Source of the DNA: an uncultured Verrucomicrobiota bacterium
GTDB lineage: Bacteria; Verrucomicrobiota; Verrucomicrobiia; Limisphaerales; UBA1319
NCBI GenBank assembly: GCA_964538065.1
Contig: CAZIDG010000013.1
Span: forward strand, 1,488 to 65,487
Length of the DNA stretch: 64,000 bases
Reading direction: 5' to 3'
This document shows, in pieces, positions 11,055 through 27,905 of this stretch. The position numbers were made by a program, and so were the translations under genes. The first letter of the stretch is position 1, and every line of letters begins with the position of its first letter. Under the pieces are notes generated by a model that saw nothing but the letters and a program-made list of their open reading frames with translations, ran no database searches and was not told the DNA's origin.

Positions 11055-11582
11055 TTACGGCTGGACAAAGTCGTGTTCTTCCTTGCGCACGACAAGCACA
11101 GGGCAGGGGGAATGCCGCACCACACGCTCCACGGTGCTGCCCAGCAGCACATGGGTCAGGCTCGAATGACCGTGTGTGGCGATGATGATCAGATCGGCAT
11201 GTTCATCCCGGGCGGCCTGGGTGATTTCAGCATAGGGTCGCCCGCAGGTGATCAGCGTCTTGCAGGCGTCTGGCATGCCAAAGTGAACCTTCACCAGGTC
11301 TTCCATCTGCTTGCGCGCGCTCTCACGAAGGTCGGCTTCGATCTGGCTCAACTCAGCCGCGCCAAACTCCGAACCCGCAAAGCTGAACTCGACCACATGG
11401 ATGAGGGTCAACCCTGACTTGAACTGGCTTGCGAAGGCGATGCCGTAGCGCAGGGCCTTGAGGGATGAGGGTGAGAAATCGATCGGGATCAGGATTTTGC
11501 ACAGTTGAATGACGGGCGTTTGCAGGGTGGGAACGGCGCTGGGCGTCTGGCTCGCATTGGGAGTTGCATTTGGATCACTCAT
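11055..11582 (-). CDS. universal stress protein (UspA family)
   Basis: ORF 11055..11828. The ATG at 11582 gives MSDPNATPN. Motifs: ILIPIDFSPSS, DLIIIATHGHSSLTHVLLGSTVERVVRHSPCPVLVV. Confidence 0.85.
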   Translation of the reverse strand: MSDPNATPNASQTPSAVPTLQTPVIQLCKILIPIDFSPSSLKALRYGIAFASQFKSGLTLIHVVEFSFAGSEFGAAELSQIEADLRESARKQMEDLVKVHFGMPDACKTLITCGRPYAEITQAARDEHADLIIIATHGHSSLTHVLLGSTVERVVRHSPCPVLVVRKEEHDFVQP

Positions 11583-11740: not shown

Positions 11741-12091
11741 ATGAGTCGCACCGTGAAAATCTGTGATGCCACGGCCCTGGGGGAGGGATGCGCAAGGTCC
11801 TTCGACGCCCCTGCCGCCAGCCCCACAAGCCAGGGCAATGGAATCGTCATCCGGTTTGAGGGGCGCATCCATGCCTACGAAAACCGTTGCCAGCACCTGC
11901 CCCTGCCGCTGGATTATGGCGATGGCCAATTCCTGACCCCCGATGGCCGGCATTTGATCTGCCGCAACCATGGCGCCTTGTACGATCCCGCCACCGGCCT
12001 CTGTGTGCATGGGCCCTGCCTGGGGGCATCCCTGCGCCCGCTGCCCATCCGTGTCGAGGAGGGCGAGGTCAGGCTCGTCCTCGGGGATTGA
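11741..12091 (+). CDS. Rieske (2Fe-2S) domain protein
   Basis: 116 aa. CQH...CRNHGALY provides the two Cys-His pairs of a Rieske centre. Confidence 0.85.
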   Translation: MSRTVKICDATALGEGCARSFDAPAASPTSQGNGIVIRFEGRIHAYENRCQHLPLPLDYGDGQFLTPDGRHLICRNHGALYDPATGLCVHGPCLGASLRPLPIRVEEGEVRLVLGD

Positions 12092-12100
12092 GCAGGCCGC

Positions 12101-13525
12101 TCAGGAGAGTTTCAGGATCAGGGATTGCAGGGTGACGGTTGAGGCGACCTGTTTCTCGGCCTGGCGAATCTGGTTGATTTCCTGGCGGATCACGTCGCGT
12201 GAGGGATCGTTGGCCGTGGGAGGTTCGATGCCCTGGCTGGATCGCAGGGCGATCAGGATGTCCTGGATCGAAATCTTGTCGAGGGGACGGGCCGGGGAGT
12301 AGGTGGTTTCCTGTCCGGCCACTTCAACCAGCAGTCTAGCCTTGACGAGGATCGCCGCCAGTTGCTGGGTCAGACGCGATGGGACGGCCAGGAGATCGCT
12401 CGATTCCCGGGTGCTGATGGCCTTTTCCCCCAGGTGGAAGCGCTTGCCGGCAATCACCATCATGCGCACGGCCACAAATTCCCTCCCCGACATGTTGATG
12501 CTGTCCAGCAGGCGGCCCTGGATATAGGAGCTTTGATTCTGAACGGCATAGGCCACCTGGGCGCCGAAGAGCAGGATCAGCCAGGAGAAATACAGGCCGA
12601 CCAGGAACACCGGCAGCATGCCGAAGCTTCCGTAGATCTTGCTATAGGAGACGACCTTTGAAACGTAAATGACGTTGAACAGGTTGTTCAACTGCCATAA
12701 CAGACCGCCCACCGCCCCGCCCACCAGGGCCGCATTCCAGTGCACCTTGGTGTTGGGCATGAGCTTGTAAAAGAGGGTGAAAAAGAGGATCAGGATGCAG
12801 AAGGGCAGGAAACGGAACACCAGGTTGCCCAATATGGGCATGTAGGACAAGAGCTTCTGCACCACCTGCAAGTGCGCGCTGGAGGTCAGACCGATGGCCG
12901 CAAAGATGAAGATGGGTCCCAGGGTGATCGTGGTCCAGTAAAGCACGACTCGACTGGTCCAACTGCGTCCCTTGGCCACATCCCAGATGTCATTGAAGGT
13001 TTTTTCGATGTTGCTCAACAGCAGAATGGTCACCAGCACCAGCGATATGAACCCCGTGATGCCCAGTGTGCCGCTGTGGATGTTGGCGATGTATTCAGTG
13101 ATTTTTCGCGCCACTTCATGCCTTCCAGCCAGATCATCCTTGGGGGCGACAGCGCCTTCCCCATTGACCCGGGTGACGACATTGGTTTTGGCGACCAGGT
13201 CCAACTGCGGGGCGACGCTGGCCACCACCGTGTCGATCATTTGCTGGATGGGCTTCTCCCCCTGGCTTTTCAAAAAGGTGGTTGAGATGCCCACCACGAC
13301 CGCCAGCAGGGGGATCAAGGCCAGGAGGGTCGTGTAGGCAAGGGCCGTCGCCCTCACCGGACAGCGGTTCTTGAAGAAGCTCTTGATGAGCAGCACGCAG
13401 AAATAGGCCGCGCGACGCCCCTTGGACATCACACGCTCATCCTGCGTCTCGATATCCTTTTCCTCAAAGAATTCCTGCGCCTGTTTCTGTAATTGCTTAA
13501 TTTTGCTAATTGGTTCGCTGCCCAT
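12101..13525 (-). CDS. YihY/BrkB family inner-membrane protein with a C-terminal Rrf2-like winged-helix domain
   Basis: This is the C-terminal 475 codons of the 910-aa ORF 12101..14833. The ATG at 13525 (MGSEPISKIK) is in frame; 13429 is an alternative start. YihY core: RATALAYTTLLALIPLLAV plus multiple TM segments. The last ~130 aa resemble Rrf2 wHTH proteins. The rest of the ORF is antisense to pstS. Confidence 0.75.
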   Translation of the reverse strand: MGSEPISKIKQLQKQAQEFFEEKDIETQDERVMSKGRRAAYFCVLLIKSFFKNRCPVRATALAYTTLLALIPLLAVVVGISTTFLKSQGEKPIQQMIDTVVASVAPQLDLVAKTNVVTRVNGEGAVAPKDDLAGRHEVARKITEYIANIHSGTLGITGFISLVLVTILLLSNIEKTFNDIWDVAKGRSWTSRVVLYWTTITLGPIFIFAAIGLTSSAHLQVVQKLLSYMPILGNLVFRFLPFCILILFFTLFYKLMPNTKVHWNAALVGGAVGGLLWQLNNLFNVIYVSKVVSYSKIYGSFGMLPVFLVGLYFSWLILLFGAQVAYAVQNQSSYIQGRLLDSINMSGREFVAVRMMVIAGKRFHLGEKAISTRESSDLLAVPSRLTQQLAAILVKARLLVEVAGQETTYSPARPLDKISIQDILIALRSSQGIEPPTANDPSRDVIRQEINQIRQAEKQVASTVTLQSLILKLS

Positions 13526-13858: not shown

Positions 13859-14791
13859 ATGAAACAAATACGCGGCATGGAATCGAAGGTGGCCAGGGCG
13901 TTTGCGCTCCTGCTTGGCTGTCTCACCGTGGTGATGGTCCTCACACAAACCGGCTGCAAACGTTCCGGTGAGGGTTCCACCACGTCCCAGGAAAAAACCA
14001 TGATCCAGAACACGGGTTCGGACACCATGGTGAACCTGGCCCAGGCCTGGGCGGAGGAATATACCAAAGTGGACCCCAGCACCTCCGTGGAGGTGAGCGG
14101 TGGGGGATCGGGCACCGGCATTGCCGCCCTGATCGCGGGCACCGTGGATATTGCCAATTGCAGCCGCAAGATCGAGCCGGAGGAGGTGGACAAGGCCCGC
14201 AAGAACACCCAGAAGGAACCCAGGGAATTCATCCTGGGATACGACGCCCTGGCGGTCTATGTATCCAAGGCCAACCCGCTGGATGAGATCACCATTGAGC
14301 AGTTGGCCGGGATTTACGGGGAGGGTGGCCGGATTGCCAAATGGTCCGATCTGGGCGTGAAGATGCCTGAAGGGGCCAGCGACGAGATCATCCGGGTCAG
14401 CCGCCAGTCCAATTCCGGCACCTACGCCTACTTCCGTGAGTCCATCCTGGGCAAGGGCCATGACTTCAAGCTGGGTTCGCGGGATATGCATGGGTCCAAG
14501 GATGTGGTGGAGCTTGTGGCCAAGACTCCCGGGGCCATTGGCTACAGCGGCATGGGCTACGCCACGCATGATGTGAAAATGCTGAAGATCGCCCGCAAGG
14601 CCGGTGACACCGCGTATGCCCCCACCGTGCAAAACACGTTGAACAAGACCTATCCCATCTCCCGCCCGCTCATCATGTACACCCTGGGCGAACCCACGGC
14701 TCATGTGAAAAAGTATCTCGACTGGCTGCATTCTGAGGCCGGTCAAAAGATCGTCGGAGAGAGTGGCTATGTCCCGTTGCCGCACCCATGA
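13859..14791 (+). CDS. pstS: phosphate ABC transporter substrate-binding protein
   Basis: ORF 13784..14791, ATG at 13859 (MKQIRGMESKVARAFALLLGCL). Motifs: NTGSDTMVNLAQAWAEEY, VSGGGSGTGIAAL, SNSGTYAYF. Confidence 0.9.
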   Translation: MKQIRGMESKVARAFALLLGCLTVVMVLTQTGCKRSGEGSTTSQEKTMIQNTGSDTMVNLAQAWAEEYTKVDPSTSVEVSGGGSGTGIAALIAGTVDIANCSRKIEPEEVDKARKNTQKEPREFILGYDALAVYVSKANPLDEITIEQLAGIYGEGGRIAKWSDLGVKMPEGASDEIIRVSRQSNSGTYAYFRESILGKGHDFKLGSRDMHGSKDVVELVAKTPGAIGYSGMGYATHDVKMLKIARKAGDTAYAPTVQNTLNKTYPISRPLIMYTLGEPTAHVKKYLDWLHSEAGQKIVGESGYVPLPHP

Positions 14792-14824
14792 TCCCAGAGC
14801 CAGGAAGGATTTGTTCAGGTCATT

Positions 14825-15718
14825 ATGACGCATCGATCACGCATTGAGACGCTCGGGGAACGGTTGATTGAATGGATCATCCGCCTGTGTGGGATTAGCG
14901 CCATCCTGTTCGTCTTTGGCATCTTCTTCTTCGTGTTTCGTGAAGGATCGGAGTTCCTGTTCACGAAGTTCAAGCCGGTCGAGTTCTTTACCAGCATCGA
15001 ATGGTATCCCACCTCGCAGAGCAACGTGCGCTATGGCGTGCTGGCGCTCATCGTGGGGACCTTGAGTGTCACGGTCCTGGCCATGGCCATTGCCGTGCCC
15101 TTTGGGCTGGGGGCCGCGGTGTTCATTTCCGAGTTCTGCCCGGCCCGGATCAAGGAGGTGCTCAAAATCGTGATCGAGTTGCTGGCGGCCATCCCCTCGG
15201 TGGTGTGGGGATTTGTCGGGCTCACGGTCATGAACCCCTTGATCATCTCAGTCTTCCACGCGCCCATCGGCCTCAACGTGCTCAATGGTGGCATCATCCT
15301 GGCCCTCATGAGCGTGCCCATCATTGTGTCGATCGGGGAGGATGCCCTGAAGGCGGTGCCGGATTCCTACCGGGAGGCCGCGGTCTCCCTGGGGGCGACC
15401 CGCTGGCAACTGGTGTACCGGGTCCTTTTGCCCGCCGCCCGCAATGGCTTGCTCGCCGCTGTCTTGCTGGGCGTGGGCCGCGCGGTCGGGGAGACCATGG
15501 CGGTGCTCATGGCCACCGGGCATGCCGTGGCGATTCCAACAAGCCCCCTGGATTCAGTGCGCACGCTTACCGCCACCATTGCCGCCGAACTGGGTGAAGC
15601 CCCGGTCCACTCGGATCATTACCAGGTGCTGTTTGTCATCGGCATCCTCCTCTTTGTCATCACCTTCCTGGTCAACCTCATCGCCGATCTGGTGGTGAAA
15701 GGAATACGCTCCAAATGA
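14825..15718 (+). CDS. pstC: phosphate ABC transporter permease
   Basis: 297 aa, multi-TM. EAA loop: GEDALKAVPDSYREAAVSLGATRWQ. Confidence 0.9.
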   Translation: MTHRSRIETLGERLIEWIIRLCGISAILFVFGIFFFVFREGSEFLFTKFKPVEFFTSIEWYPTSQSNVRYGVLALIVGTLSVTVLAMAIAVPFGLGAAVFISEFCPARIKEVLKIVIELLAAIPSVVWGFVGLTVMNPLIISVFHAPIGLNVLNGGIILALMSVPIIVSIGEDALKAVPDSYREAAVSLGATRWQLVYRVLLPAARNGLLAAVLLGVGRAVGETMAVLMATGHAVAIPTSPLDSVRTLTATIAAELGEAPVHSDHYQVLFVIGILLFVITFLVNLIADLVVKGIRSK

Positions 15719-16698
15719 ACCTTCTTGAGGGTCAACCTGTGGTGAACACGCGGCCGGAACCCCGGGCCGTCCAGGCTTCGTCGGAAGACCGCACCGCGTT
15801 CCCGGACGGCAATCCCTTTGCCGAAACCCGCCACAGCCGGCGCAAGCTTCGCCATGAGCGATGGGCCAGGGTGGTGTTCCTGGGGATGACCTTGATGATG
15901 ATCATCCCGCTCCTGCTCATTGTGGGATATTTGGTGTATCATGCCATGCCCAGCCTTTCGCTCGACTTCCTGCTGACCAGCCCCAAGCGCGGCATGAGGG
16001 CAGGGGGCATCTGGTCGCCGCTGCTGGGCACCATCTACCTGGTGATCATCTCCCTGGCGGTGGCGGCGCCCATCGGCGTGCTGGCGGCCGTGTATCTCAA
16101 TGAATATGCCCGGGAGAACTGGTTTACGCGGATCATCAACCTGGCCGTGGTCAACCTCGCCGGCGTGCCCAGCATCGTCCACGCCCTGTTCGGCCTCGGG
16201 GCGTTTGTCATGTTCGCCGGCATGGGGCGATCCATCCTGGCCGCCTCGCTGACCCTGGCCATCATGACCTTGCCGGTGATCATCGCCAGCACGAAGGAGG
16301 CCCTGGCCTCGGTGCCGATGTCCTTTCGCGAGGCCTGCTGGAGCGTGGGGGCGACCCGCTGGCAGACCATCTGGGCGGTGGTGCTGCCCAATTCCATCAG
16401 CGGCATCCTCACGGGCATCATCCTGCAGGTGTCCCGCGCCGCAGGCGAAACCGCCCCCATCATGTTTACCGGGGCCGTGTTCTACAAGGCCGTCCAGGAC
16501 GGCAATGTGTTCGCCTACGGTCTGTTTGACCAATGCATGGCCCTCTCGATGCACCTCTTCACCATTTCCACGCAGGTGCCCGATGTCCCGCCGTCCCTCC
16601 CGTATGCCATCGCGGTGGTGCTCCTGGGGACGGTCCTTGTGGTCAACGCCCTGGCCATTGCCTTGCGCATGTTTTTAAGGTCACGTAAAAAATGGTGA
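15715..16698 (+). CDS. pstA: phosphate ABC transporter permease
   Basis: 327 aa. ATGA overlap with the pstC stop. EAA loop: TKEALASVPMSFREACWSVGATRWQ. Confidence 0.9.
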   Translation: MNLLEGQPVVNTRPEPRAVQASSEDRTAFPDGNPFAETRHSRRKLRHERWARVVFLGMTLMMIIPLLLIVGYLVYHAMPSLSLDFLLTSPKRGMRAGGIWSPLLGTIYLVIISLAVAAPIGVLAAVYLNEYARENWFTRIINLAVVNLAGVPSIVHALFGLGAFVMFAGMGRSILAASLTLAIMTLPVIIASTKEALASVPMSFREACWSVGATRWQTIWAVVLPNSISGILTGIILQVSRAAGETAPIMFTGAVFYKAVQDGNVFAYGLFDQCMALSMHLFTISTQVPDVPPSLPYAIAVVLLGTVLVVNALAIALRMFLRSRKKW

Positions 16699-17447
16699 AC
16701 AAGATTGAAATCTCAAGCCTGAGTGTCTCCTATGGCACGGTTCAGGCCCTCAAAAGGGTGTCCCTCAACATCCCGCCTCACTGCATTTACGCCATCATTG
16801 GCCCTGCGCAGTCGGGCAAAACCACGCTGCTCAAGGCCCTGAACCGCACGCTGGAGTTGACCGCGGGCGCCACGGTGGAGGGCTGCATCAAGGTGGACGG
16901 CGAGGACATCATGAAGATAGCCGATGTGTTCACGCTGCGCCGGAAGGTTGGCATGGTGGCTCCCTTGCCCGTGGGGTTGCCGATGTCCATTTTTGACAAT
17001 GTTGCCTTTGCGCCCCGCCAGGCCGGCGTGCGCAAGGCGAAGGATCTCGAGCACCGCGTGGAGCGCTGCCTGCGCCAGGCGGCCTTGTGGGATGAGGTCA
17101 AGGACCGCCTTCACAGCCTGGGCACCAAGCTCTCCGGCGGCCAGCAACAGCGTTTGACGATTGCCCGCGCCCTCTCGCACGATCCCCAGATCCTGTGCCT
17201 GGATGAGTTTTCCATCGCCATCGATCCCGTGACCACCATGCGCATTGAGGAGGCGCTCAAGGAGCTGCGCAAGACCATGACCATTGTCCTGGTGACCAAC
17301 CTCGTGCAGCAGGCGCGCCGCCTGGCCAGCCGCACCGCCTTCATGCTCAACGGGGAGCTGGTCGAGGAGAACACCACCGAGATCATCTTTTCTGACAAGC
17401 CTGCCCACCGCAAAACCTACGAATACGTGAACGGCATTTTCGGATGA
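16692..17447 (+). CDS. PstB-like ATPase paralog 1 (signature intact; Q-loop and H-loop degenerate)
   Basis: Walker A GPAQSGKTT. Q-loop position VGMVAPLP (no Gln). Signature LSGGQQQRL. Walker B region LCLDEFSIAIDP. H-loop position VTNLV (no His). PstB-like C-terminus YEYVNGIFG. Overlaps the pstA stop. Confidence 0.85.
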   Translation: MVNKIEISSLSVSYGTVQALKRVSLNIPPHCIYAIIGPAQSGKTTLLKALNRTLELTAGATVEGCIKVDGEDIMKIADVFTLRRKVGMVAPLPVGLPMSIFDNVAFAPRQAGVRKAKDLEHRVERCLRQAALWDEVKDRLHSLGTKLSGGQQQRLTIARALSHDPQILCLDEFSIAIDPVTTMRIEEALKELRKTMTIVLVTNLVQQARRLASRTAFMLNGELVEENTTEIIFSDKPAHRKTYEYVNGIFG

Positions 17448-18220
17448 ACGAAGAACGGCGCAATTCCATCGAGACCCGCGATCTCTGCCTCTGGTACGGT
17501 CAGTTCCAGGCGCTGAAGCATGTGAACGTCCGCATTGGCCATGGGCTGATCACCTCGCTCATCGGGCCCTCGGGCTGCGGCAAGACCACCCTGTTGCGGT
17601 GCTTTAACCGCGTGAATGAGCGTTACGGGAATGTCACCACCCAGGGCGAAATCACCATCCTGGGCAAGAATATCTACGATCCCGATGTCTCGCTCATCGA
17701 GCTGCGCAAGTCCGTCGGCATGGTGTTCCAGCGGCCCAATCCGCTGCCCATTTCCGTTTACGAGAACGTCGTCTTCGGCTTGCGCATCCATTCCGAGCTT
17801 GGATCCGTCAAGCGGAGCGATCTGGACGATGTGGTCGAAAAGTCGCTCCGGGAGGTGTTCCTGTGGGACGATCTCAAGGACCGCCTGGATGAGAAGGCGA
17901 CCCGCCTCCAGCTTGAGCAGCAGCAGAAGCTGTGCATCGCGCGGCTGCTTCCCCTCAAGCCCGAGGTCATCCTCATGGATGAGCCATGCTCGGCCCTGGA
18001 TGCCAAGGCCACCCTCGCCGTGGAGGAGCTCATGCACACCCTGGTGGGACGCTACACCATCGTCATTGTCACGCACAACATGGCCCAGGCCCGGCGCGTC
18101 AGCCATGAGTGCCTGTTCATGTTGATGGGCGAGTTGGTCGAGCACAGCCCCACTCGCGAGCTGTTTTTAAAACCTCGCGAAGCCCGGACAGCCGAGTACA
18201 TTGAAGGCCGATATGGTTGA
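17444..18220 (+). CDS. pstB: phosphate import ATP-binding protein PstB (catalytic motifs intact; signature degenerate)
   Basis: Walker A GPSGCGKTT. Q-loop VGMVFQRP. Walker B ILMDEPCSALD. H-loop VTHNM. The signature position reads LQLEQQQKL instead of LSGGQQQRL. C-terminus AEYIEGRYG. ATGA overlap with paralog 1. Confidence 0.9.
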   Translation: MNEERRNSIETRDLCLWYGQFQALKHVNVRIGHGLITSLIGPSGCGKTTLLRCFNRVNERYGNVTTQGEITILGKNIYDPDVSLIELRKSVGMVFQRPNPLPISVYENVVFGLRIHSELGSVKRSDLDDVVEKSLREVFLWDDLKDRLDEKATRLQLEQQQKLCIARLLPLKPEVILMDEPCSALDAKATLAVEELMHTLVGRYTIVIVTHNMAQARRVSHECLFMLMGELVEHSPTRELFLKPREARTAEYIEGRYG

Positions 18221-18992
18221 TCGCCCCATGAATCACGATCCTGTCCCCTTGATGGACGTGGAGCATTTCCGTGCCAGCTATGGCAAACGCGAGGTGCTCC
18301 ATGGCGTGTCGCTGTCCATTCAGCGCACGGAACGGCTGGCGCTCATCGGCCCGCTCGGCAGCGGGCGCACCACCTTGTTGCGCAGTCTCAACCGGCTCAA
18401 CGACATGGATCCCGAATATGCCTGCTCAGGGCGCATCCTCTTCGAGGGCAGGGACATCCGGGATAAGACGTGCGATCCGGCCGAGCTGCGGCATCGCGTG
18501 GCCTTCCTCAATGCCGCGCCATCGCCGTTGCCCAAGTCGATTCATGACAACATCTCGTTTGGGCTGAAGACGGCCGGTCTGCGCAATGCATCCGGCCAGG
18601 AGGCTGCCATTGAAAACAGCCTGCGCGTCGTGGATCTGTGGGAGCAGTTGAAGGATCACCTGCACGAGCCTGCGCTGGGCCTGAACCGGGGGCTTCAATA
18701 CCGGCTGTGCCTTGCGCGGCTGCTGGCCCTTGATCCGGTCATCATCCTGCTGGATGAACCGTGTGCGGGGCTTGATCCCATCTCAACCGCACAGATTGAG
18801 CAGATCTTTGCCGTGCTCAAACAGCGCCTCACCATCGTGTTCGCCACCAATGATAACAAGCAGGCGGCCCGCTCTTCGGACCGGGTTGCCTATTTGGATG
18901 CAGGTGAATTGGTGGAAATCGGGCCCACGTTCGAGGTGTTCCGCAACCCCAAAAACCAGCGCACCGACGATTATCTCACCGGGCGCGGCTGA
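18213..18992 (+). CDS. PstB-like paralog 3, predicted catalytically inactive
   Basis: ORF from TTG 18201. The ATG at 18213 overlaps the pstB stop (ATGGTTGA). Walker A GPLGSGRTT (Lys to Arg). Q-loop position VAFLNAAP. Signature position LNRGLQYRL. Walker B ILLDEPCAGLD. H-loop position ATNDN. PstB-like tail DDYLTGRG. Confidence 0.8.
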   Translation: MVDRPMNHDPVPLMDVEHFRASYGKREVLHGVSLSIQRTERLALIGPLGSGRTTLLRSLNRLNDMDPEYACSGRILFEGRDIRDKTCDPAELRHRVAFLNAAPSPLPKSIHDNISFGLKTAGLRNASGQEAAIENSLRVVDLWEQLKDHLHEPALGLNRGLQYRLCLARLLALDPVIILLDEPCAGLDPISTAQIEQIFAVLKQRLTIVFATNDNKQAARSSDRVAYLDAGELVEIGPTFEVFRNPKNQRTDDYLTGRG

Positions 18993-19020
18993 GGGTCCTC
19001 CCTTTCTTTGGACCATCCAT

Positions 19021-19050
19021 CCCCCGAGCGAACATCGGGGGACTTTTTTT
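19021..19050 (+). terminator. rho-independent terminator of the pst operon
   Basis: CCCCCGA-GCGAACA-TCGGGGG (7-bp perfect stem, 7-nt loop), then AC plus T7. It lies 29 nt after the stop at 18992. Confidence 0.8.
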
Positions 19051-19122
19051 GATCCGCATGCGGTGGAATTTTGGTCTCGCCAAGCGCTGGAAGCCCATGC
19101 AGGATGATTTGCCTATTTTTGC

Positions 19123-20664
19123 ATGACAGAACAAATTGTCATTTTGGATTTTGGATCGCAATACACGCAGGTCATTGCGCGTCGCATTCGCGAATGCAGC
19201 GTTTATTGCGTCATCATGCCCTTCAATACGCCGGCATCCGAACTGGCGCAGTTGCGTCCACAGGGGATCATCCTCTCGGGTGGTCCGGCCAGCGTGTATT
19301 CAGACAGGGCGCCCCTGCCTGATCCGGCCATCTTCGATTTGGGGGTGCCCATGCTGGGCATCTGCTTCGGGCTGCAGCTGGTCGCCCAGTTCATGGGCGG
19401 CAAGGTCGAGCGCGGCGATAAACGCGAATATGGAAAGGGCACCCTGAGTGTCAAGGATCGCGGCTGTCACTTGTTCCGGAAGCTGCCCGCCTCGCTCCAG
19501 GTGTGGAACTCCCATGGCGATAAGCTGACCCGGCTGCCCAAGGGGTTCAAGTCGGTGGCCATCACCGAGAACTCCGCCTTTGCGGCCATCGAGCACAAGT
19601 CCAAGAAGATTTACGGCCTCCAGTTCCATCCCGAGGTGGTGCACACCCCCCGGGGCAAGGAAATCATCAGCAATTTCGTCCATGGCATTTGCGGGTGCGG
19701 ACGCGACTGGAACATGCGCAATTACATCGACCAGGCGGTCGAGCAGATCCGCAAACAGGTGGGCGGGGAACACGTCATTCTCGGCCTGAGCGGGGGCGTG
19801 GATTCCAGCGTGGCGGCCGCCTTGATTCACAAGGCCATCGGCGACCAGCTGACCTGCATCTTCGTCAACAACGGCCTGCTCCGGGCTGGCGAGGAGGACG
19901 TGGTCCAGCAGGTCTTTGGCAAGAATTTCAAGATCAAGCTCCAGTACGAGGATGCCAGCGCCCTCTTCCTGCGGAAGCTCAAGGGAGTCACCGATCCGGA
20001 ACGCAAACGCAAGATCATCGGCGGCACCTTCATTGAGGTGTTTCAGGATGCCACCAAGCGGGTGGGCAAGGCCCGGTTTCTGGCCCAGGGAACCTTGTAT
20101 CCGGATGTCATCGAATCGGTTCCGATCGCGGGCAATCCGGCGTCCATGATCAAGAGCCATCATAATGTCGGCGGCCTGCCCAAGAAGATGAAGCTCAAGC
20201 TCGTTGAGCCCCTGAAGTGCCTCTTTAAGGACGAGGTGCGCCAGTTGGGAATCGAGTTGGGGCTTCCCAAGGAGATTGTCTATCGACAGCCCTTCCCGGG
20301 CCCAGGCCTGGCCGTGCGCATTCTGGGGGATGTTTCAGACAGCCGTCTGGCCATCCTGCGCAATGCCGATGCCATCGTGGTCGATGAAATGAAGAAGAGC
20401 GACATGTATTACAAAATCTGGCAGAGCTTCGCGGTCCTTCTGCCGGTGCGTAGCGTCGGGGTCATGGGGGATGAACGAACCTATGATTACACCATCGCCG
20501 TGCGTGCGGTCGAATCCCAGGACGGCATGACGGCCGATTGGGCCAAATTGCCGTATGACCTTCTTGAGCGGATATCCAACCGCATCATTAATGAGGTGAA
20601 GGGCGTCAATCGCGTGGTGCTCGACATTTCGAGCAAGCCACCGGCCACCATTGAGTGGGAATAG
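19123..20664 (+). CDS. guaA: GMP synthase (glutamine-hydrolysing)
   Basis: 513 aa. GATase nucleophile region [11 protein letters not shown]-PPase P-loop [12 protein letters not shown]-terminal KPPATIEWE. Confidence 0.95.
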
Positions 20665-25516: not shown

Positions 25517-25647
25517 ACGTTTTTCCTCAGTTTGTTGTTCTTTAAGCCGCCCGTTGAGCCAGGCGCCCCGCGCGGCGGCCATCTCGATCTACACCATAAA
25601 TAGACTCCCCCAGTGTTAAGCTTCCGTGTGGATGAAGGGGGAAAATT

Positions 25648-25663
25648 GTAAAGGAATGGTAAA
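25648..25663 (+). promoter_or_regulatory. GTAAA-N6-GTAAA direct repeat (CpxR-box-like) in the divergent promoter region
   Basis: GTAAAGGAATGGTAAA read directly. It lies 65 nt upstream of the response-regulator ATG. A TATGAT -10-like hexamer is at 25691..25696. The E. coli CpxR consensus is GTAAA-N5-GTAAA. Confidence 0.4.
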
Positions 25664-25727
25664 AGTTGGCGCAGGGCGGCCCCAATCAGGTATGATGGGG
25701 ATCAGAAAGACGTTGATCCGTAATCAC

Positions 25728-26462
25728 ATGACCCCGACTGGACAGGACCGTGAAGATAGGCCCCGGGTGCTGATCATCGATGATGATCGCAAGCTCTGCC
25801 GCTTGATCAAAGAGTATCTGGAACCGATGGGCTATGCCATCGTGCCGTCTCACACGGGGCCCGAGGGGTTGGCTCTCGCGACGTCCGAGCCCTGGCAGGC
25901 GGTGATCCTCGATGTCATGCTGCCTGGCATGGACGGCTTTGAGGTGCTGCGTCAACTGCGTCAAAAGTCCAGGGTGCCCGTCCTCATGCTCACCGCCCGT
26001 GGCGAGGAACCCGACCGGATTGTGGGCCTGGAAATGGGGGCTGATGATTATTTGCCCAAGACCTTTTCATCCCGTGAATTGCTGGCTCGCCTGCGAGCCG
26101 TCATCCGCCGCTCGTCCCAATCCGCCGAGGAGAAGCCCGAGGCGGCCGAAGTCGTGGTCGGCGACCTGCGCATCAACACGGGGGCGCGGGTGGCGGTGAT
26201 GCATGACCAACCGCTGATCCTGACGCCGGTGGAGTTTGACCTGCTGCTCTCGCTGGCGAAGGCGCGGGGCAGGGTCAAGACCCGCGAGCAGTTGCTTGAG
26301 GAGATACGGGAGCGCAACTACGAGGTGTTCGATCGTTCGATCGATGTTCACATATCGGCGTTGCGCAGGAAGCTGGGAGACGACCCCAGGACGCCCCAGT
26401 TCATCAAGACGGTGCGTGCGGTGGGGTACAGGATGGTCATTCCCGGACAGGAGGATTTCTAG
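25728..26462 (+). CDS. OmpR-family response regulator, CpxR-like
   Basis: ORF 25626..26462, ATG at 25728. Receiver domain: VLIIDDD...ILDVMLPGMDG...MLTARGEEPDRIVGLEMGADDYLPKTFSSRELLARLRAVIRRS, close to the E. coli CpxR pattern. Winged-helix C-terminus: FIKTVRAVGYRM. Confidence 0.9.
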   Translation: MTPTGQDREDRPRVLIIDDDRKLCRLIKEYLEPMGYAIVPSHTGPEGLALATSEPWQAVILDVMLPGMDGFEVLRQLRQKSRVPVLMLTARGEEPDRIVGLEMGADDYLPKTFSSRELLARLRAVIRRSSQSAEEKPEAAEVVVGDLRINTGARVAVMHDQPLILTPVEFDLLLSLAKARGRVKTREQLLEEIRERNYEVFDRSIDVHISALRRKLGDDPRTPQFIKTVRAVGYRMVIPGQEDF

Positions 26463-27905
26463 ATGCGATTTCCGTTGTATGCCCGCATTCTGACCTGGTT
26501 CGTGCTGAACCTTCTCTGGTTGTCGCTGGCGGGATTTTTTCTGGTGCGGCTCCAGTTCCATGGGACGGTTCCCTCGTTTTATGCCACGCAGGCGGGGAAT
26601 CGCCTGATGGGCGTGGGGGAGATGATGGCGGATGAGCTGCGGCAAACGACGGATCGCAATGCGGTTCTTCATCAATATGGCCAGGCCTACGGGGTTGAAT
26701 TCCTGCTCTTCTCCACCGATGGAATTCAACTGGCAGGCAAGGCCACGACTTTGCCTGCGGAAATCACCCGTTCCCTGGCCGGCATGCGCGGGCAGGCGAT
26801 GGCCAGGGCCCGCGGCTGGGGAGGCCCACCCGCCTGGGCTCGCAGCAGCACCGGCACCAATGTGGCCGGGCAGCGTTCATTCTTCCTCCGCACCACCTCG
26901 CCGGTGTGTTACTGGGCGGGCATGTGCCTGCCTTCCCTGGATGCCGATTTGCGCGGCCCGCGACGCACGGTGCTTCTGGCCAAGTCAGCCTCCTTCAGCG
27001 GGGGCGGTCTTTTCTTTGATGTCACGCTGTGGGGGGGCGTGGCCCTGGGGGTGTTTCTGCTGTCCGCCCTATGGTGGTTTCCCCTGGTGCATGGGATGAC
27101 GCGGGCCGTTCGCAAAATGACGCTCGTGGCCGCCGAGATTGCCCGTGGCCGCCTGGAATCAAGGGTGGATGTGCGGCGACGCGATGAATTGGGACAATTG
27201 GGCGATGGCATCAATTCGATGGCGCAGCAGTTGTCTGACTATTTGAACCACCAACGCCGGTTCCTGGGCGACATCGCCCACGAGCTCTGCTCGCCCCTGG
27301 CCCGGATGCAGATGGCGCTGGGCATCATCGAACAAAAGGCCGACCCGGCTGCCAGAAGCCAGATCGCCGACCTGCGTGAGGAGGTCGATCAAATGTCCTC
27401 GCTGGTCAATGAGCTGCTGTCCTTTTCCAAGGCGTCGATGGGAGGGGCCAACATCCAATTGCGCGAGGTGTCACTATCGGAATTGGTCGATCATGTCATC
27501 AACCGTGAAGCCCCCAATGACGCGCGCATTGTCCGGCGGGTGGCCTCGGACGTGCGGGTCATTGCCGAGGCTGAATTGCTGGGCCGGGCCATCGCGAATG
27601 TGTTGCGAAACGCTCTTCGCTACACGGACACCCATGGCCACATCAGCATCGAGACGGCTCTGACCCATGGACAGGTTCTGTTGACGATTGCCGATGATGG
27701 TCCGGGGGTGCCCGAAGACGCTCTGCCGCATTTGTTTGATGCGTTCTATCGTCCCGACAGTGCTCGAAGGCGCGAGACTGGAGGCACGGGCCTGGGATTG
27801 GCGATTGTGAAGACCTGCGTGGAATCCTGCAAGGGACAGGTGCTGTGCCGCAACCGATCCCCGCATGGATTTGAGGTCGTGTTCACCCTGGTGGGGGTGG
27901 CCTGA
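26463..27905 (+). CDS. sensor histidine kinase (two TM segments, HAMP, HisKA, HATPase), CpxA-like
   Basis: Abuts the response-regulator stop. H-box FLGDIAHELCSPLARM. N-box VLRNALRY. G-boxes DDGPGVP and GGTGLGLAIVK. Confidence 0.9.
   Translation: MRFPLYARILTWFVLNLLWLSLAGFFLVRLQFHGTVPSFYATQAGNRLMGVGEMMADELRQTTDRNAVLHQYGQAYGVEFLLFSTDGIQLAGKATTLPAEITRSLAGMRGQAMARARGWGGPPAWARSSTGTNVAGQRSFFLRTTSPVCYWAGMCLPSLDADLRGPRRTVLLAKSASFSGGGLFFDVTLWGGVALGVFLLSALWWFPLVHGMTRAVRKMTLVAAEIARGRLESRVDVRRRDELGQLGDGINSMAQQLSDYLNHQRRFLGDIAHELCSPLARMQMALGIIEQKADPAARSQIADLREEVDQMSSLVNELLSFSKASMGGANIQLREVSLSELVDHVINREAPNDARIVRRVASDVRVIAEAELLGRAIANVLRNALRYTDTHGHISIETALTHGQVLLTIADDGPGVPEDALPHLFDAFYRPDSARRRETGGTGLGLAIVKTCVESCKGQVLCRNRSPHGFEVVFTLVGVA

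Follow-up and report, generated by a model that had tools for sequence, protein, structure and literature searches.

Complementary motif losses in tandem PstB paralogues indicate a heterodimeric phosphate importer with one consensus ATP site, accompanied by a probably non-catalytic third subunit

Introduction

The Pst system, a hub of Pho signalling, serves as the textbook example of a high-affinity phosphate importer, and its motor is assumed to be a homodimer of PstB with two active ATP sites. In Escherichia coli PstSCAB, known from cryo-electron microscopy (9k3x, 9k3s; PMC12976172), two identical PstB subunits form two consensus sites, each permease receives one ATPase subunit docked via a coupling helix, and phoU comes after pstB (PMC12976172). 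The E. coli PhoU protein, whose gene closes the pst operon, binds to PstB and restrains the activity of the transporter or reports it (as cited in PMC12976172). Here we analyse a pst operon of an uncultured Verrucomicrobiota bacterium, found in a stretch of 64,000 nucleotides (assembly GCA_964538065.1, contig CAZIDG010000013.1, positions 1,488 to 65,487; hereafter the window), in which pstS, pstC and pstA are followed by three PstB-type genes that we call c1, c2 and c3. The locus shares with E. coli the pstS, pstC, pstA core and the ATPase fold, but it differs in having three different ATPase subunits, none of them fully canonical, at most one predicted consensus site and no phoU within 64 kb.

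Adjacent pstB genes within one pst operon are likewise found in Firmicutes, as PstB1/PstB2 in Enterococcus faecalis and PstBA/PstBB in Bacillus subtilis. A 2025 study of E. faecalis remarked that tandem pstB paralogues had not been addressed in earlier work, and reported that the two are not functionally equivalent (PMC12096839); the B. subtilis system has been modelled as a PstBA-PstBB heterodimer (PMC11466899). In these Firmicutes pairs both proteins carry canonical motifs, whereas the window combines complementary losses in two copies with a third copy that appears dead. The cyanobacterial pstB/pstB′ genes, cited in the original prediction, are another adjacent two-copy case.

The association of a consensus ATP site with a degenerate one is a frequent and established working design in ABC exporters (PMC3971661, PMC7756269). 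In TM287/288, TmrAB, BmrCD, PatAB, Rv1273c/72c, TAP1/2 and CFTR, one ATPase domain contributes its catalytic face to the degenerate site and the other a non-canonical signature (PMC3971661, PMC7756269, PMC12038006). The ATPase domains of these exporters are fused to exporter-type membrane domains, whereas c1, c2 and c3 are free proteins of 251-258 amino acids, encoded with permeases of the BPD_transp_1 importer type. Furthermore, exporters usually lose the catalytic Glu, while c1 keeps it and loses the Q-loop Gln and the H-loop His. We know of no exporter with a third, fully dead ATPase subunit. Among importers, one naturally degenerate ATP site has been reported, as far as we found, only for the sugar and nucleoside importers RbsA and NupO (PMC11466899), in which the ATPase domains are fused and which belong to another importer class, in contrast to the separate PstB-family subunits of the window. 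Searches of open-access full texts turned up no account of PstB paralogues whose degenerate motifs are complementary, nor of a third dead PstB.

Results

The three genes lie on the forward strand, c1 at 16692..17447, c2 at 17444..18220 and c3 at 18228..18992. All three proteins match ABC_tran, with TIGR00972 (PstB) as their best family, and their whole-protein scores against it are 278.6, 328.4 and 262.7 bits, respectively, none of which reaches the equivalog cut-off of 343.2. Identity to E. coli PstB is 46% for c1, 47% for c2 (which matches the 9k3x_C sequence with an E-value of 1.5e-73) and 39% for c3. Judged from these matches, c1, c2 and c3 are full-length homologous genes and not a chance pattern.

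ABC ATPase hydrolysis needs the H-loop His, the Walker A Lys and the Ser and Gly of the signature, and mutation of the H-loop His or of the signature Gly abolishes hydrolysis in well-studied members of the superfamily. When c1, c2 and c3 were aligned to E. coli PstB with MAFFT, none of the three polypeptides was found to hold the complete catalytic set. The putative catalytic paralogue c2 (type ‘KQsEH’) has Walker A GPSGCGKTT, Q-loop VGMVFQRP, Walker B ILMDEP, D-loop SALD and H-loop VTHNM, and its signature reads LQLEQQQKL; a similar signature, LNVEQ, is found in the degenerate site of yeast Pdr5. The putative signature donor c1 (type ‘KqSEh’) has the signature LSGGQQQRL, Walker A GPAQSGKTT with its Lys kept, Walker B LCLDEF and D-loop IAID, and has Pro for Gln in the Q-loop (VGMVAPLP) and Asn for His in the H-loop (VTNLV). 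In c3 (type ‘kqsEh’), Arg replaces the Walker A Lys (GPLGSGRTT), the Q-loop has no Gln (AFLNAAP), the signature reads LNRGLQYRL and the H-loop His is changed to Asn (ATNDN); the Asp-Glu of Walker B (ILLDEP) and the Leu-Asp of the D-loop (AGLD) are retained, and all other catalytic and signature determinants are gone. The original prediction, made from the letters and open reading frames (ORFs) of this DNA, had made motif calls in all three copies and had judged that the third looks catalytically dead, and the alignment bears out each of the motif calls.

The losses in c1 and c2 are strictly complementary, so that only a heterodimer of the two would contain a complete ATP site; neither a c1:c1 nor a c2:c2 homodimer would have one. 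The Pst motor would thus be a c1:c2 heterodimer seated on PstCA, replacing the homodimer of PstB. In this arrangement c2 would provide the full catalytic face, that is Walker A, Walker B, the Q-loop Gln and the H-loop His, and c1, the non-catalytic half, would be the source of the sole intact LSGGQ signature, the two together forming the consensus site. The second site would be composed of the Walker A of c1 and the LQLEQ of c2, with neither Q-loop Gln nor H-loop His on the c1 side; as in heterodimeric exporters, ATP would probably be bound there but not hydrolysed.

With c2 as the query, 5.8 billion proteins yielded thousands of relatives, the best 120 of which were analysed; c2’s own cluster apart, they are 76-84% identical to it. 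In all 120, Walker A, Q-loop, Walker B and H-loop are canonical and the signature is degenerate, reading exactly LQLEQQQKL in 114 of them. We also used c2 to scan a collection in which each bacterial species is represented by one genome. A c2 relative is encoded at no fewer than 587 of the 600 pattern matches listed in these species-representative genomes, and c2 is at most 79% identical to any match listed. The best 80 loci were fetched, and their ORFs were called simply as longest ORFs and classified by motif. A c1-type ORF precedes the c2-type ORF on its 5′ side in every one of the 80 loci, directly abutting it in 71, and the same order is seen in L009, L090, L101 and L103. Across the survey loci, the c1 type keeps the Walker A Lys, LSGGQ and Walker B, and has lost the Q-loop Gln and the H-loop His. 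The record titles of the 80 loci name Verrucomicrobiota, Acidobacteriota, Myxococcota, Poribacteria, KSB1, Fibrobacterota, Methylomirabilota, Thermoanaerobaculia and others, and MAG titles with Chthoniobacter, Prosthecobacter and Fibrobacter are also seen among the carriers of the pair; here as elsewhere in this work, taxon names are those given in the titles of metagenome-assembled genomes (MAGs) and may be wrong.

Both proteins are also ordinary members of their families. Among 78 members of the c1 family, 127 columns reach a conservation of 90% or more, and c1 retains 125 of these; c2 retains 150 of the 151 conserved columns of its own family. Compared with a sister species (locus L007), the ratio of nonsynonymous to synonymous substitution rates (dN/dS) is 0.049 for c1 and 0.044 for c2. 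By these comparisons, the c1/c2 pair is the standard, inherited state of a large multi-phylum PstB subfamily and not a peculiarity of the window. The asymmetric c1/c2 heterodimer that the original prediction had proposed gains strong comparative support from the joint occurrence of the complementary types in 80/80 loci and from the near-invariance of the degenerate motifs. We consider a c1:c2 heterodimer with a single active site very probable, and the pattern of losses indicates that, on motif grounds, the association of the two would be obligate.

A second, more distant type of pair shows the same complementarity. Its signature donor, with VGMVYAVP, SGLD, VTNNT and LSGGQ, is carried by MAGs with labels that include Planctomycetes, Phycisphaerae and Bacillota, and its catalytic partner, readable in one locus (L009), has an LSPEQ signature together with canonical catalytic motifs.

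Several loci of the survey have particular arrangements. In L009 (8001-12054), a PhoU_div gene and a PHO4 gene (a PiT-type phosphate permease) stand between the donor and the catalytic ATPases, and phoU comes after. In L010 (5743-8001), L052 and L056, the c1-type and c2-type genes are 1.4-2.6 kb apart and do not abut. One c2-type protein (P0122), 79% identical to c2, has 386 amino acids compared to about 258, possibly by fusion or through a mis-called start. L014 (4-8777) and L016, whose titles name a Limisphaerales and a Verrucomicrobia MAG, carry two pst systems in tandem, in which pstC-pstA-pstB with phoU, all motifs of this PstB being intact, is directly followed by phoU-pstS-pstC-pstA and a c1-type/c2-type pair; some genomes thus hold both a homodimer-type and a heterodimer-type Pst.

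The third gene is far more restricted in its distribution. Among the 5.8 billion proteins, the search with c3 recovered its own cluster and a single orthologue (P0002) at 86% identity, the next match being at about 55%, so that orthologues at 86% identity or more form two clusters only. P0002 is encoded in the syntenic contig of the sister species, L007, where the same three genes are present and the degenerate motifs of c3 are identical. Between the two species, dN/dS of c3 is 0.098 at a synonymous divergence (dS) of 0.85, and neither copy contains a stop codon. This value is comparable to those of pstS (0.096) and pstA (0.108), and about twice those of c1 and c2. Since it is under purifying selection, c3 is not decaying; the original prediction had named pseudogene decay of copies 1 or 3 in orthologous loci as a possible outcome, and the c3 frame in L007 is intact. 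Furthermore, the AlphaFold2 model of c3 has a predicted local distance difference test score (pLDDT) of 94, and Foldseek superimposes it onto E. coli PstB (9k3x_C) with template modelling (TM) scores of 0.94/0.97 and a root-mean-square deviation of 1.2 Å.

A recent tandem duplication of c1 or c2 is not the source of c3, which is only 38-39% identical to these, compared to 52-55% to the second family of signature donors (the VTNNT type), with which it groups in a neighbour-joining tree built on 254 columns. It retains 96 of the 135 conserved columns of that family, and the 39 changed ones cluster at the Walker A Lys, the Q-loop, the signature, the D-loop Ser and the H-loop; the P-x-P-L-P-x-S-I-x-D-N stretch past the Q-loop is largely retained. 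Composition gives no sign of a recent horizontal gain, the GC content of c3 (0.61) and that of its third codon positions (0.76) being similar to those of the neighbouring genes. Taken together, c3 is predicted to be a lineage-restricted, selected, full-length third subunit of PstB fold, without ATP hydrolysis and unable to complete the site of a partner.

More distant counterparts of c3 were found by several routes. The H-loop of the c3 type (A-T-N-D-x-K-Q-A-A-R) was turned into a DNA pattern, which is specific to c3 among the fetched loci and gave 12 matches in metagenome contigs; two of them (L090, L101) are true third subunits, in loci with the order pstA, c1-type, c2-type and third gene, and no Pst-related ORF was detected in the other 10 contigs. 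The same gene order occurs in L017, titled as an Acidobacteria MAG, and in L103, which came from a search of 1.84 billion cluster representatives. If the clade is defined by a gene of PstB fold right after a c1-type/c2-type pair, with an [AT]TND H-loop and with neither signature nor Q-loop Gln, it has six members: the window, L007, L017, L090, L101 and L103. The three-copy pattern, of which the original prediction had known no description, is indeed absent from the literature that we consulted, but, though rare, it is not unique to this locus, as four other lineages (L017, L090, L101 and L103) share it.

The window and L007 apart, which are 86% identical, the third subunits are mutually 43-59% identical, compared to 71-81% for their c1 and c2 partners. 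They share the glycine scaffold of Walker A, the Walker B Asp, the Leu-Asp of the D-loop and a clade-specific ‘TND-K-AAR-SD’ stretch, the H-loop being of the ATND type (TTND in L103), and the interior of the signature and the Q-loop are wholly variable. Such a conserved scaffold with a free signature and Q-loop would be expected for a non-catalytic subunit that folds, contacts a partner and maybe binds nucleotide.

Inert PstB-like proteins are not confined to this clade. When the 150 best cluster representatives related to c3 are considered, some 20 prove to be other ‘dead’ proteins of this kind (P0366, P0371, P0390, P0397, P0408, P0417 and others), which have neither signature nor H-loop His, many of them also lacking the Q-loop Gln or the catalytic Glu; in P0408, Arg replaces the Walker A Lys, as in c3. 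Their number suggests that inert PstB paralogues have arisen repeatedly. In L102 (162-944) and L105 (181-945), the dead PstB-like gene comes after the C-terminus of an apparent membrane protein, and in L105 it is followed by the apparent start of a PhoU protein.

A different third copy exists in 14 Poribacteria loci (L048:8872-11289, L049, L052, L056, L067, L070, L071, L073, L076, L077, L079, L082, L086 and L087). There, the c1-type/c2-type pair is followed by a gene for a permease-like protein of 243 amino acids (BPD_transp_1, weakly PstA-like), a different third ATPase and phoU. This ATPase keeps Walker A and has an LSxGQ signature, Walker B IFDEP and H-loop TNKR; as it forms its own branch in the tree, it seems to be independent of c3 in origin.

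In the window, the genes from pstS to c3 are contiguous on one strand (13877-18992), as the original prediction had read them and as the ORF list and the NCBIfam and Pfam scans confirm. pstS (13877..14791, forward strand), for the periplasmic phosphate-binding protein, scores 232 bits against TIGR02136 (cut-off 206.6), matches Pfam PBP_like_2 and has a lipoprotein-like signal; a longer ORF could start from 13784, and the start at 13877 is matched by the gene call in identical Logan contigs. Contigs from the Logan runs SRR9674389 and SRR9590233 share this locus and code for an identical c2. The permease genes pstC (14825..15718, forward; TIGR02138 295.6 bits, cut-off 196.45; Pfam BPD_transp_1) and pstA (15715..16698, forward; TIGR00974 256.1 bits, cut-off 193.45) overlap by 4 nt. 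The start of c1 overlaps the end of pstA (ATGGTGA) and that of c2 overlaps the end of c1 (ATGA). For c3, the start had been placed at 18213, an ATG that is ACG in the orthologous locus L007; the conserved start is the ATG at 18228, 7 nt past the c2 stop, which gives a protein of 254 amino acids. A terminator-like hairpin, TCCCCCGAGCGAACATCGGGGGA, followed by the T-run CTTTTTTTG (19020..19051, forward; from a consensus scan only), begins 28 nt 3′ of the c3 stop codon; the pst operon probably ends there. Because start and stop codons overlap or nearly abut throughout and the hairpin comes after c3, we regard these genes as a single operon. The next gene is guaA (19123..20664, forward; ORF list and NCBIfam/Pfam scans), whose best named matches come from Verrucomicrobiota MAGs at 81% identity. 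No further ABC ATPase or pstB is found elsewhere in the 64-kb window, which also has no Rfam match to a structured RNA.

A hidden Markov model (HMM) of PhoU, based on 71 proteins from related loci, has no match in the six frames of the window at E <= 10, and no phoU lies within +/-10 kb of the operon in L007. The absence of phoU noted in the original prediction thus holds across 64 kb. Nearly all relatives with sufficient coverage have phoU, which makes the locus unusual for the c1/c2 family: flanking DNA suffices in 68 related loci, and phoU adjoins the operon in 67 of these (the exception is L051), just upstream of pstS in 53 (52 on the same strand and one, L017, divergent) and downstream in the 14 Poribacteria loci. 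In the window and in L007, the position upstream of pstS that phoU holds in the relatives is taken by a YihY/BrkB-family gene on the opposite strand. In the window (12101-13525, minus strand, divergent from pstS) it encodes a membrane protein that also has a weak match to Rrf2-like proteins, and beyond it lie a Usp gene (11055-11582, minus strand) and the gene for a small Rieske protein (11741-12091, plus strand). Like E. coli phoU, c3 ends its operon, with no phoU nearby; yet the statement that c3 sits where phoU usually lies is an E. coli-centred reading, as phoU of this subfamily is normally upstream of pstS. The proteins also differ in kind, PhoU having a helical-bundle domain and c3 an ABC ATPase fold; no PhoU domain (PF01895) was detected in c3, whose only Pfam match is ABC_tran.

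Among the three-copy loci, L017 and L103 have phoU beside the operon, in L103 together with phoB and phoR. The anticorrelation between third copy and phoU that the original prediction had put up for survey is therefore not supported, since the two occur together in L017, in L103 and in every Poribacteria locus. As L017 and L103 keep phoU, the third subunit is not in general a substitute for it, nor did it arise as one. Some 6.6 kb downstream of the operon (25626-27905, plus strand) lie the genes for a response regulator and for a histidine kinase of the HAMP kind; examined as a candidate PhoB/PhoR pair, they were rejected, their best families being OmpR/CpxR and CpxA and their scores falling below the PhoB/PhoR cut-offs.

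Discussion

The explanation that we favour, with a probability of roughly 60%, is that the c1:c2 heterodimer is a one-site motor and that c3 is a non-catalytic regulatory subunit added to it. That c3 is a functional subunit devoid of catalysis is in itself likely. Since c3 descends from signature donors, its natural partner would be the catalytic subunit, and c3 may replace c1 beside c2 on PstCA, possibly held there via a degenerate-type ATP site composed of the Walker A scaffold of c3 and the LQLEQ of c2. Because c3 has no signature, such a c2:c3 pair would be without a consensus site, and the complex could represent a transport-off or signalling state, overlapping in function with PhoU elsewhere. 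We offer this specific mechanism, in which c3 mimics c1 or acts as a brake, as a tentative proposal.

Several points weigh against this explanation. The functional statements rest, for every member, on motif logic. The catalytic Glu is kept in c1 (LDEF), and the second site may thus have some residual activity. The change of the Walker A Lys to Arg is found only in the lineage of the window and not in the third subunits of L017, L090, L101 and L103, and the fast evolution of these subunits relative to their partners (43-59% against 71-81% identity) fits relaxed constraint as well as it fits regulation. A constitutively co-transcribed inhibitor would also be odd, unless it is further regulated. 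Finally, the binding of c3 to the transporter is putative, as is the docking of each ATPase subunit on PstC or on PstA.

The regulatory or signalling role that the original prediction had suggested for c3 is thus favoured in so far as it is non-catalytic, but the part of the claim that placed c3 in the position and role of phoU is weak. In its full form, this claim would be that phoU was lost in this lineage and that the dead c3, in place of PhoU, either gates the transporter directly or relays its state to a histidine kinase. A further reading, unlikely as well, joins such a takeover to subunit exchange: by swapping for c1 beside c2, c3 would turn the one-site motor into a complex devoid of any active site, which shuts off or signals the uptake of phosphate. 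The lack of PhoU in the window and around the operon of L007, in a family where phoU adjoins nearly every covered operon (67/68), would fit such a takeover, as would the YihY/BrkB-family gene at the usual phoU position and the extra Walker A substitution, which is seen in the third subunit of this lineage alone. However, phoU may simply lie elsewhere in the genome, outside the 64 kb, and the sole two-component system of the window is a generic OmpR/CpxA-like one below the PhoB/PhoR cut-offs. Moreover, L017 and L103 keep phoU (L103 with phoB and phoR), the third copies of Poribacteria are followed by phoU, and c3 has no PhoU domain. We therefore regard the takeover as unlikely, though it is the strongest of the alternatives.

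Less probable still is that c3 works outside Pst, as the ABC-fold module of another complex that is merely co-transcribed, in the manner of PhnK/PhnL on C-P lyase. Non-transport ABC ATPases are known in phosphorus metabolism, PhnK/PhnL structures are among the fold matches of c3, and the signature and the Q-loop, the latter region being where the coupling helix of the permease makes contact, are the least constrained parts of the third subunits. On the other hand, in every locus found the third subunit comes right after c1-type and c2-type pst genes, with no other candidate partner gene conserved nearby, and c3 has largely kept the P-x-P-L-P-x-S-I-x-D-N stretch after the Q-loop.

Another possibility is that the motif deviations are tolerated, c1, c2 and perhaps c3 all being active and forming interchangeable dimers like the canonical pairs of Firmicutes. 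c1 does retain Lys in Walker A and Asp-Glu in Walker B; however, in well-studied examples, mutants of the H-loop His or of the signature Gly lose hydrolysis. In E. faecalis, both adjacent PstB paralogues serve phosphate import and one can replace the other (PMC12096839), but complementary losses kept across phyla would be unexpected were these residues dispensable, and we consider this possibility very improbable. The least probable alternative, a functionless duplicate of PstB on its way to becoming a pseudogene, could account for the loss of all catalytic motifs but Walker B, for the roughly twofold faster evolution of c3 than of c1 and c2 and for its narrow spread (two orthologue clusters at 86% identity or more among 5.8 billion proteins), yet it is largely refuted by a dN/dS as low as those of pstS and pstA (0.098 at dS 0.85), a frame intact in the window, L007 and four distant relatives, a very confidently predicted fold (pLDDT 94) and degenerate motifs that are identical in both species.

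In conclusion, our comparisons indicate that a large and broad PstB subfamily works with an obligate heterodimer containing a single consensus site, in place of the assumed homodimer. This subfamily is common in Verrucomicrobiota, Acidobacteriota, Myxococcota and Poribacteria, and a second form of it is found in MAGs labelled Planctomycetes and Phycisphaerae. The locus represents a variant of the Pst importer and of the ABC motors with one degenerate site, and no new category; the current name of all these proteins, ‘phosphate ABC transporter ATP-binding protein’, masks the distinction between them. Our comparisons further suggest that inert ATPase paralogues are a recurrent accessory of pst operons, where they may play a regulatory role. 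As a natural one-site importer, this system could show how many ATP molecules are used per cycle of a type I importer, and what role the degenerate site has.

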